A DNA stretch of 24,361 nucleotides from Candidatus Bathyarchaeota archaeon (GCA_026014845.1 JAOZHM010000069.1:1-24361), one strand, 5' to 3'; positions 21,672 through 23,976 are shown, counted from the first letter of the stretch. Notes: generated from the letters alone by a model not told the origin. Made by a program: numbers and translations.

Positions 21672-22640
21672 ATGGGCGACGAGAAAAAAGATGAGAATTC
21701 TGACCCTTTGTTAAGCTCTCAATTGGAACCTGAGAAGATTCAACGCTGTCCAGAATGTGGCAGTACAAGATTTATGCGTGATTATGAGTGTGCCGAAGTG
21801 GTTTGTATGGACTGCGGCTTCGTGATAACCGCAAAAATAGCTGACAGGGGGCCAGAATGGAGAGCTTTTACCAATGAGCAGAGGGCGAAACGGACAAGGG
21901 TTGGTGCTCCATTAACTTATACAATTCACGATAAAGGCTTATCCACAATGATTGATTGGCATGACCGCGATGTTTATGGAAAAAGTCTGTCGCCTGGGCA
22001 GAAGGCGCAAGTCTACCGTCTCAGGAAGTGGCAACGCCGCATAAGGGTTTCAGATGCCACGGAACGCAACCTCGCCTTTGCATTATCTGAAATCACAAAA
22101 ATCGCCAACAACCTAAACCTTCCTAAGAATATCCTCGAGACAGCTTCGGTTATCTATCGAAAAGCCGTTAAGGAACGGTTGATACGTGGGAGATCAATTC
22201 AGGGCGTAACCGCCGCAGCAGTCTATTTGGCTTGTAGGCAATGCAAGCTAGCCAGAACTTTGGAAGAAATTGCCCAAGCGTCGAATGTAAACAAAAAAGA
22301 GGTTGGTCGCAGCTATCGTTTCTTAGTCAAAGAACTTGACTATTTCGTTCCACCTGTAAAGCCAAGCCAGTACATAACAAAATTTTCAAATCAGTTAACA
22401 ATGCAGGGGAAAGTTGAGGAAATAGCGCATAAAATTTTGGCAACCGCAAAAGAGTTAAAGCTAACTTCGGGTCGTGGTCCCACAGGTATAGCGGCAGCTG
22501 CGAGCTATATAGCTTCTGTGTTGACTGGTGAGAGGAAAACGCAAAGAGAGATAGCTGAAATAGCACAGGTAACTGAAGTTACTATCCGAAACCGTTACAA
22601 GGAACTCGTAGAACGTCTGATGTTCCAGATAAGCCTCTAA
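21672..22640 (+). CDS. tfb: Transcription initiation factor IIB
   Basis: Zn ribbon CPECG...CMDCG, B-reader GPEWRAF, two cyclin repeats ([15 protein letters not shown]), C-terminal [16 protein letters not shown]. Confidence 0.98.
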
Positions 22641-22689: not shown

Positions 22690-22983
22690 TTAAAGAAGAC
22701 CTTCATCCTCGTAACTAGAGCGTTCTTCGACCGGCTTATTTTCTTCGTTCAATCGTGCTGATGTGACGTCTCCAAGTTGTTGAAGAAATTCTTGCGGAAT
22801 TCTATCCTTTAAGGCTTTAATGTCATCTCTCAATTTATTAACTTCGCCTTCTAGCTCCTTTGCTCTTTCGGTTAATTCTACAACATCTTCAAGCTTCTTC
22901 TTCTCCTCCAAAAGCGTGCTTTTCTCCTTTTCTAAAGTGTTTATTTTTTCCTCGAGTTTGGTTTTCATCTCGACAACTTGCAC
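22690..22983 (-). CDS. Small coiled-coil protein with an acidic tail
   Basis: AGGTGA SD before GTG 22983. Heptad pattern LEEKINTLEKEKSTLLEE...LEGEVNKLRDDIKALKD. Confidence 0.75.
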   Translation of the reverse strand: MQVVEMKTKLEEKINTLEKEKSTLLEEKKKLEDVVELTERAKELEGEVNKLRDDIKALKDRIPQEFLQQLGDVTSARLNEENKPVEERSSYEDEGLL

Positions 22984-23100
22984 AACTCTTCACCTGCACT
23001 AATTTCTGTTATACTCACAATTAATAATTTGCCCTTGAACCGTAGGCGTTGCAAAACACATTTTAGACTCTATGGTGATAATTATAGAAGGGGCTATAAT

Positions 23101-23532
23101 TTGGTTGAATGTCCAAAGTGTGGAACAGAAGTAATTACCCCAGTTAAGACATGGTCTATTCCTTCTCGAAGAGCGGCGAGAAGAGGCGAAGAAAGCAAAC
23201 TTGTTATGGGAATATTTGAATGTCCGAATTGCCAAGCTAGGTTTAGAGCAGCTGTGACAGCCGAAACCAAAGCTGAGGAAACAGTAAGTGTTAAAAATAT
23301 GGTTAAGAGAATTAAAGGTATAAAGGGGGAACTTATGCAGACTCTCAAGAATCTTCGTGGAAAAATAAAAACCTTGGAGACAGAACGTGCAAATTTGATG
23401 ATTGAAATTGAAAAATTGAAGAAAATGGCAGAATCAAAGGTTAGCGCGCTTGAAGGTGAAGTAAGCATGTTGCGGGAGGAAGTGACATCCTTAAGGGACC
23501 TTCTAGGTTACACAGAAGAAGCAGAAAAATAA
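23101..23532 (+). CDS. Cren7-like (Zn-ribbon variant) domain fused to a C-terminal coiled coil
   Basis: VECPKCG...PVKTWSIP...MGIFECPNCQARFRA resembles Cren7 (PEKVWALAP...KIGLFKDP...YFRH). About 65 aa of heptads follow. Start is taken as TTG 23101, because the ORF-track start 22978 overlaps the divergent gene. Confidence 0.7.
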   Translation: MVECPKCGTEVITPVKTWSIPSRRAARRGEESKLVMGIFECPNCQARFRAAVTAETKAEETVSVKNMVKRIKGIKGELMQTLKNLRGKIKTLETERANLMIEIEKLKKMAESKVSALEGEVSMLREEVTSLRDLLGYTEEAEK

Positions 23533-23571: not shown

Positions 23572-23976
23572 TTAGTCTTTCAAGTATTTCTTGTAATACT
23601 CTTGAGCCTTGGCTACCGCTTTTTTCGGGTTTTTCAAAATATGATACTTTGTCTCTGGTGAAATTTTCTCACTTTTGCTAAAGTATTCTATAACCTTTTT
23701 TGCATCTCCTTCGTAAATCGCTAAGCCTCCGGCTATTTCATACCACATCCTTGCCCTTACAAGATCCTTGGCTTTTTCACGTTTTTTTGCCTCTTTAGCA
23801 GCAGTACCTATTGAAACATCGATTTTTGTAGGGTCAAGAAACATCGTGTTAGACAACGCTTCATAGGTTTCTTGGTCTCGTCCGCAAATTTGTTCAAGTT
23901 CTGTCAGCGATTTTTCTGATTCAACTTGTATTTTTTGTTCTTTCTCTTTTCTTTTAAATCTGTCAAGTAAACCCAA
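23572..23976 (-). CDS. Hypothetical all-helical protein
   Basis: 134 aa, TTG start with a GAGGGG SD. No family recognised. Confidence 0.7.
   Translation of the reverse strand: MGLLDRFKRKEKEQKIQVESEKSLTELEQICGRDQETYEALSNTMFLDPTKIDVSIGTAAKEAKKREKAKDLVRARMWYEIAGGLAIYEGDAKKVIEYFSKSEKISPETKYHILKNPKKAVAKAQEYYKKYLKD

Follow-up and report, generated by a model that had tools for sequence, protein, structure and literature searches.

A headless relative of the stalk of a Cren7-like zinc-ribbon protein, encoded beside it in Bathyarchaeia, as a possible modulator of archaeal chromatin proteins

The nearest functional analogue of the gene pair described here is found in enterobacteria, where the nucleoid protein H-NS is accompanied by H-NST, a small paralogue that keeps the oligomerising part only, and by StpA/Hha-type modulators. 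Id-type inhibitors are dominant-negative HLH/leucine-zipper proteins without the basic DNA-binding region. It has been proposed that truncated H-NS derivatives such as H-NST associate with H-NS into heteromers and inhibit the function or bridging of H-NS (PMC5647153). On the archaeal side, passages of the work of Kaur, Iyer, Subramanian and Aravind (2018; PMC5906684) derive Cren7 from a zinc ribbon, and report Cys-bearing Cren7 proteins and Cren7 fusions with coiled-coil or cell-division domains, the former in Bathyarchaeota and the fusions in Bathyarchaeota and Crenarchaeota. In the fusions described in those passages a CdvA-like coil or FtsZ lies N-terminal to Cren7, and term searches of the paper returned no mention of a headless coil paralogue.

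Here we analysed one contig of a Bathyarchaeia metagenome-assembled genome (1.31 Mb in 275 contigs, 81% complete; GCA_026014845.1, JAOZHM010000069.1), and the whole stretch of 24,361 nucleotides is referred to as the window. Gene A (23101..23532, plus strand; 143 aa) encodes a Cren7-like zinc ribbon followed by a coiled-coil stalk, and gene B (22690..22983, minus strand; 97 aa) encodes a headless coiled-coil protein with an acidic tail. The two genes are head to head with a divergent spacer of 117 bp (22984..23100) that holds both promoters. Next to B lies tfb, the gene for transcription factor B (21672..22640, plus strand; Pfam TFIIB 2e-48, Zn_Ribbon_TF 1.6e-14), which is 85-92% identical across all syntenic loci; tfb and B are convergent, and the end of tfb is 49 bp from the stop of B. 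On the other side, a conserved 134-aa gene, X134 (23572..23976, minus strand), is convergent with A, is present in nearly all syntenic loci, and gave no Pfam or NCBIfam match. This anatomy agrees with a first-pass annotation of the window, which had placed A and B head to head, 117 bp apart and adjoining tfb, and had raised the idea of a chromatin protein paired with its antagonist. The start codon of B is GTG at the position where homologues have ATG and begin MQVVEMK, and that of A is TTG, its homologues beginning M/L-V-K-C-P-K-C-G.

Searches with A gave 637 relatives at E≤0.001, and the 120 listed are 70-98% identical to it. Residues 1-55 (23101..23265, plus strand) form the four-Cys zinc-ribbon head (CPKCG...CPNC), in which C4, C7, C41, C44, K16 and W18 are invariant across the relatives. 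Residues 56-136 (23266..23508, plus strand) form a highly conserved helical stalk with dN/dS values of 0.02-0.11, and most of its columns are invariant or almost so among the relatives of 70-98% identity. The head does not reach the Pfam gathering cut-off for PF11520 (Cren7; 25 bits), and this family was absent both from the matches of A shown at E≤1 (the best 25 of 76 listed) and from the 25 most widely matched families for 28 A2 members; some database homologues of A carry a precomputed PF11520 match. When the profile of the A head was compared with the PDB, Cren7 appeared with E values of 0.35-0.93 over 37 positions, and the CxxC knuckles of unrelated zinc fingers scored higher. The same genome contains a free-standing 58-aa paralogue (L004:797-973, contig C117), which is 38% identical to the A head and scored 18.2 bits against PF11520 (E 0.0024, cut-off 25). 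The AF2 model of this paralogue (pLDDT 88.6) has a small β fold that is superposable on solved Cren7, and its top PDB matches were Cren7 chains (6a2i, 5k07 and 3kxt) with TM values of 0.58-0.62, 31-38% identity over 51-52 columns and probabilities of 0.87-0.99, the Foldseek E values being only 0.27 and above. This result agrees with Kaur et al. (2018, PMC5906684). The Cren7 assignment given to the head in the first-pass annotation can thus be retained as Cren7-like by way of the modelled fold of the paralogue, A itself staying under the Pfam cut-off, and we suggest that the head belongs by fold to the published Cys-bearing Cren7 group. In this four-Cys form, the A head and the free-standing paralogues of 56-58 aa appear to share the fold of Cren7 (Sso6901; PF11520; PDB 3KXT, 3LWH and 6A2I). 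It is plausible that such a Cren7-type head on an oligomerising stalk serves as a DNA bridger. The genome also encodes a histone and three Alba proteins.

The free-standing four-Cys Cren7-like gene (56 aa; 58 aa in the copy of this genome) is widespread across the class. On contig C117 (L004), a probable signal peptidase and a TBP-like ORF lie 0.3-1 kb downstream of it.

The coils of A and B were then compared. Residues 85-133 of A (23353-23499, plus strand) align with residues 10-60 of B (22804-22956, minus strand) in both BLASTP and hhalign. The first-pass annotation had counted about 20 identities over about 50 positions by manual alignment, with an exact LEGEV, and had cautioned that coiled-coil composition can inflate apparent similarity. 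BLASTP reproduced the count, with 21 identities in 51 positions (41%), LEGEV included, and an E value of 2e-8 for this single comparison. The Smith-Waterman score of A and B was 96, against 36.8±6.4 for plain coil shuffles and 46.2±7.1 for shuffles in which the heptad register was preserved (z=7.0; none of 5000 reached 96). When profiles built from 26 relatives of B and 28 relatives of A were aligned by hhalign, the probability was 97% and the E value 9e-11 over 52 columns; as an unrelated coiled-coil control, the best match of the A profile among all PDB chains was keratin with an E value of 0.02. When the B profile was run against 1.84 billion representatives, unrelated giant coiled-coil proteins reached 10-20 bits in their best single stretch, whereas proteins of the module family, either zinc-ribbon+coil or coil-only, reached 35-58 bits, and every protein with one stretch of at least 35 bits was a small zinc-ribbon+coil or coil-only protein. 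Within its own genome, the best non-self matches of B are A and A-like coils. It might be argued that the resemblance reflects generic coiled-coil composition between unrelated neighbours, since A and B both give many sub-threshold matches to bZIP, filament and SMC-like models. The shuffles that preserve heptads, the hhalign E value, the gap in bits between unrelated coils and family members, and the ranking within the genome all speak against this explanation, to which we attach hardly any credence. The similarity is better than that to unrelated coiled coils, and the first-pass observation holds. Judged from their sequences, the coils of A and B are homologous.

The bZIP_1 family (PF00170) matched A with 22.4 bits and B with 21.2 bits, below its cut-off of 27.6, and only the zipper part was aligned, so that neither protein belongs to the bZIP family. 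The Gly of LEGEV shared by A and B was considered as a sign of co-evolution or gene conversion and rejected: by eye, the flanking codons differ at synonymous sites, and the residue is not common to other A/B pairs that apparently lie on one contig.

The AF2 model of B, calculated with 31 relatives, shows a continuous helix at residues 2-61 (22801..22980, minus strand; pLDDT 92-98), followed by a kink at Ile62-Pro63, a short helix and a disordered tail. The long helix is the coiled-coil module and presumably pairs into a coiled coil. Residues 62-77 (22753..22800, minus strand) carry the conserved segment (R/K)IPQEFLQ(Q/E)LG, which reads IPQEFLQQLG in the window; I62, P63, L67 and L70 are nearly invariant, and the helix at residues 64-81 was modelled at lower confidence. 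Residues 78-97 (22693..22752, minus strand; pLDDT below 50) form the acidic tail NEENKPVEERSSYEDEGLL. No family in Pfam or NCBIfam matched B above its cut-off, the best being bZIP_1 (21 bits versus 27.6), and a look-up in the ESM Atlas yielded nothing beyond coiled-coil clusters that are unnamed or generic, with scores of 0.88. The earlier description of B as a 97-aa protein without a DNA-binding domain and with an acidic end was borne out by these results. Weak NCBIfam matches (ASRP with 26 bits, its cut-off being 300; Sul12a, E 0.11) were set aside as generic coil or CxxC resemblance. Among 61 full-length tails of the B family, 24 end in EECxxCEEEE(L/F)L, that is, with a single CxxC amid acidic residues, and the CxxC tail is the majority form among the B representatives at 50% identity. 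The lineage of the window has lost the CxxC (EERSSYEDEGLL). With a single CxxC in each tail, the two chains of a dimer could build a zinc site between them, similar to a zinc hook.

To describe the distribution of the two genes, we used a sample of 301 genomes of the class and a second sample of 38 loci from species-representative genomes, the B-bearing loci of both amounting to 48, some of which overlap. Full-length A was found in about 45 of the 301 genomes, in four families of the order. Full-length B was found in 10 of the 301, all in the family of the window, and B is confined to one subgroup of this one Bathyarchaeia family. The gene order DUF116-X134-A<->B<-tfb<-Gar1 was present in 10 of 10 B-bearing genomes and in 38 of 38 species-representative loci, and B was never found apart from A in the 48 loci. 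The linkage of A and B in these relatives is strict. The whole Gar1-tfb-A-X134-DUF116 neighbourhood, however, is syntenic at this phylogenetic depth anyway, and the adjacency of A and B is therefore weak evidence of function. A 2.1-kb contig labelled Candidatus Baldrarchaeota (L086; JAEOSG010000324.1) also carries a typical Bathyarchaeia A-B-tfb-Gar1 block, which is probably due to an error in binning or labelling.

The short distance between B and tfb, always 15-50 bp from the tfb end in syntenic loci, leads to the question of whether B works with the transcription machinery rather than with A, for example as an acidic-tailed adaptor, and the hydrophobic residues at the end of the acidic tail would suit such a role. 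Against it, tfb and B are convergent and thus not co-transcribed, tfb and A adjoin each other in genomes without B too, and the Pfam and NCBIfam searches gave no resemblance of B to a known TFB or TBP partner. We consider a role as transcription adaptor very improbable.

The arrangement in genomes without B bears on how the pair arose. In eight such relatives, A comes straight after tfb and has the same orientation, the ORF coordinates giving a spacer of roughly 90-190 bp, and the A-B spacer of the 10 B-bearing genomes measures 99-131 bp and contains two conserved blocks. One is the 17-mer TGCAAAACACATTTTAG (23050..23066, plus strand), which lies about 35 nt upstream of the start of A, is near-invariant in 10 of 10 B-bearing loci and unique in the window, and is probably the BRE/TATA of A; a GGGG ribosome-binding site lies 8-11 nt before the TTG of A. 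An exact copy of the 17-mer is also present in three B-less genomes (G072, G298 and G145). Since the promoter element of A occurs in both B-bearing and B-less loci, B was probably added between tfb and the older promoter of A. This order of events is tentative because the TFB tree, on which the presence of B requires four changes of which well-supported branches force only one, cannot tell a single gain of B from several events. The conservation of the 17-mer goes beyond the needs of a bare TATA box, and it may therefore also be a regulator site. The genome of the window has no clear second copy of it; as a regulon signal the 17-mer was rejected, the genome giving only matches with two mismatches at about control level.

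The other conserved block of the spacer, the AT-rich CAATTAATAATTT (23018..23030, minus strand), lies 35-47 nt upstream of the start of B, is kept in 9 of 10 aligned spacers and is unique in the window, and it is probably the TATA element of B; AGGTGA is found 6 nt before the GTG. Close relatives of B number 38, to which about 30 clusters at 50% identity are added. Its dN/dS values across eight genera are 0.03-0.14 in the pairs where dS could be estimated, dS being large, and saturated in most other pairs, and 13 columns are invariant among sequences down to 39% identity to B. Three orthologues are broken. In one genome (G296; L015:1498-1815) a TAA nonsense codon replaces the Leu codon TTA of relatives; in a second (G008; L020:1443-1509) a 51-bp segment flanked by the 8-bp inverted repeats GCGGAATT and AATTCCGC is present in inverted orientation, and the frame is broken by it; and at a third locus (L097:2474-2785) the gene is split into two ORFs. 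The inversion could be real or an assembly artefact. From these copies it follows that B is dispensable in some lineages. Together with the restricted distribution and a variable tail whose CxxC was lost in the window lineage, they could suggest that B is an ORF without function, either young and nearly neutral or in decay. This explanation has very little to commend it in view of the low dN/dS values across genera with saturated dS, the 13 invariant columns, the conservation of translation and promoter signals, and the number of clusters at 50% identity. By these sequence comparisons, B is a genuine gene under purifying selection. With regard to RNA, contigs of one hydrothermal-vent metatranscriptome match tfb, a part of A from a relative (23175-23399, with 13 mismatches over 225 positions) and the DNA immediately downstream of A, and none of them covers B; as the matches are contigs in an RNA library, neither expression nor silence follows from them.

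The module common to A and B consists of two blocks, LExE(K/R)xxL and LExEVxxL(R/K), in one long helix, and both blocks are present in B. It occurs in three contexts: fused to a Cren7-like head as in A, alone in proteins of 60-105 aa, and N-terminally in proteins of 415-585 aa behind a zinc ribbon. The spacing of the two blocks is 25 in 137 of 137 A-family sequences and in the coil-only proteins of the same register, 27 in 46 of 47 B-family sequences, and 30 in a third group. Because of this difference between 27 and 25, the two coil halves of B and A cannot both pair in register at once, and a continuous in-register A-B heterodimer over both halves would be geometrically mismatched.

Headless proteins closer to the stalk of A than B were found at other loci of the same genome. 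An 81-aa ORF on contig C94 (L002:177-422) is 73% identical to the A stalk, has the 25-residue register and forms the sister group of A in the coil tree. At the DNA level it aligns clearly with the A stalk; upstream, there is little similarity to the head region, and the weak residual head match carries stop codons (three or one, depending on the search). From this comparison, the C94 ORF is a recent headless copy of the A stalk and, strictly, a closer truncated-paralogue analogue than B. A second headless ORF of the same register (63 aa, contig C20), downstream of a ParB-like gene, is 48% identical to the A stalk, compared with 41% for B. In a family sample of one genome per genus, the majority of the genomes with A have a short headless paralogue elsewhere as well, and the coil-only paralogues other than B are scattered among loci. 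The maximum-likelihood tree of the module places B beside a zinc-ribbon+coil protein from a different family (support 92/87), away from the A stalks, although this tree is weak, with 60 columns and long branches. As far as the sequences tell, B does not resemble a recent duplicate of the adjoining A.

Several other occurrences of the module were recorded. The ParB-like protein on contig C20 (L003:35-1256; ParB_N + HTH_ParB, 325 aa) has at its C-terminus half of the coil module, the first block only, followed by CPHC. The gene was also found at G008:C66:30742-31944 and at G332:C232, and a coil-only gene of 63-74 aa directly follows it in the genome of the window and in G008, the match in G332 being cut by a contig end. 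Close orthologues of the ParB-like gene are present in only 3 of 61 family genomes, and it may therefore sit on a mobile element. In genus g54 of family f19, proteins of 415-585 aa (L024:358-1905, L037:1246-2760 and L028) have at their N-terminus a zinc ribbon and coil similar to those of A, which cover profile positions 1-131; the L024 and L037 proteins matched no Pfam family at all, their remaining 300-450 residues included. Finally, a same-register coil-only gene (ORFs of 66-100 aa) adjoins a gene similar to homocitrate/isopropylmalate synthases (HMGL-like, 1.9e-61) in six of six loci (L029-L033 and L039). The pair is divergent in at least five of the six. Genus g4, which yielded no full-length A, is represented among these loci.

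Based on these observations, we propose that B is a lineage-restricted headless member of a Bathyarchaeia coiled-coil module family, the stalk of A being the same module under a Cren7-like head, and that B would act as an accessory that modulates Cren7-type chromatin proteins. By a first route, one half of the B coil would hetero-pair with the A stalk and cap or dilute A oligomers, as suggested for H-NST. By a second route, the tethered acidic tail of B would compete with DNA for the basic heads. We put the probability that B modulates A or Cren7-type heads, by half-coil capping or by masking of the basic head with its tail, at roughly 0.4, whereas the descriptive part of the proposal is almost certain; what we infer is oligomerisation, any contact between A and B, and any effect of B on DNA binding or bridging. 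In a heptad register assigned by hand, A and B have in common the hydrophobic core positions, a polar a-position (R96 in A, K21 in B) and, in their C-terminal half, the pattern of g-e' salt bridges (E...R), and pairing within one half is therefore chemically permitted. A prediction of the complex between the A stalk (residues 56-143) and B gave a best ipSAE of 0.08 against a mark of 0.32; it was run without controls, and we do not weigh it on either side of the binding question. The columns of A and B covaried no more strongly than those of TFB and B (mean normalised MI 0.135 versus 0.126; 95th percentile 0.296 versus 0.288), a comparison that is underpowered with 37 non-identical pairs.

A serious competitor, which we also hold to be somewhat short of even odds, is that B is an insulated paralogue that pairs only with itself. 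Its own function would then reside in the IPQEFLQEL segment and in the tail, whether acidic or with CxxC, and its position beside A would be historical. The fixed shift of two residues in register would keep B from mixing with A, and the headless partners of A, if any, would be the same-register coil-only paralogues elsewhere in the genome. The spacings of 25, 27 and 30 that are fixed by subfamily fit well with such insulation, as do the position of B outside the A stalks in the tree and the same-register headless paralogues in most A-bearing genera, two of them in this genome. Furthermore, the A stalk looks much alike in B-bearing and B-less genomes when the printed sequences are compared by eye, with no co-adaptation, and the neighbourhood would be syntenic in any case. 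It is less easy to explain in this way why B was never found apart from A in the 48 partly overlapping loci while other coil-only paralogues are scattered, and why core and e/g positions of the hand-assigned register are common to A and B. Returning to modulation, the first-pass annotation had taken B as encoding only the matching coiled coil of A. What stands of this is that the coils are homologous, that B is headless and that the linkage is strict; the match itself is qualified by the spacing of 27 against 25, by closer same-register paralogues elsewhere, and by the placement of B outside the A stalks. The most far-reaching version, in which headless stalk paralogues of Bathyarchaeia tune Cren7-type DNA-bridging proteins and B is a dedicated, co-regulated antagonist that caps A oligomers by half-coil pairing and masks the basic heads with its acidic, ancestrally zinc-linked tail, appears unlikely to us, though worth stating.

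Compared with the known systems, B is similar to H-NST in that it keeps a module homologous to the stalk of A (hhalign and shuffles) and has no DNA-binding domain, consisting of a helix and a disordered tail without a zinc ribbon. The likeness is a proposed functional analogy and not homology. Unlike H-NS, with which there is no sequence or fold relation, A has as its putative DNA-binding part an N-terminal Cren7-like zinc ribbon, and no H-NS family was among the matches shown in the Pfam, NCBIfam or PDB searches. Unlike H-NST, B has its own conserved C-terminal segment and acidic tail and a fixed register difference of two residues from A, and it is chromosomal and strictly adjoins A rather than being island-borne. 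B also recalls the Id-type inhibitors, in which a dimerisation module without a head could sequester a partner that binds DNA, and both A and B give the sub-threshold coil matches to bZIP_1; it differs from them in that there is no basic region or bZIP membership, and the putative DNA-binding head of A is a separate zinc-ribbon domain far from the coil. With respect to the published Cren7 fusions, the order in A is reversed, with the head N-terminal and the stalk C-terminal. Cys-bearing Cren7 in Bathyarchaeota was already published, as the passages of PMC5906684 cited above indicate; new here are the placement of a stalk C-terminal to the head, the family of headless paralogues of this stalk, the block spacings fixed by subfamily, and the tail of B.

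Little is known about archaeal chromatin beyond the histone and Sulfolobus models, and the Bathyarchaeia are abundant and uncultured. The fixed spacings of 25, 27 and 30 provide a small natural test case for coiled-coil paralogues that are kept from, or allowed, cross-pairing. If B merely self-associates, it would be an ordinary lineage-specific paralogue. If the antagonist reading is true, the pair would be the first archaeal counterpart of chromatin control of the H-NS/H-NST type. The natural headless copies of the stalk, B as well as the closer ones of the same register, would be ready tools for asking whether archaea regulate bridging proteins by subunit poisoning, as in the case of enterobacterial H-NS.
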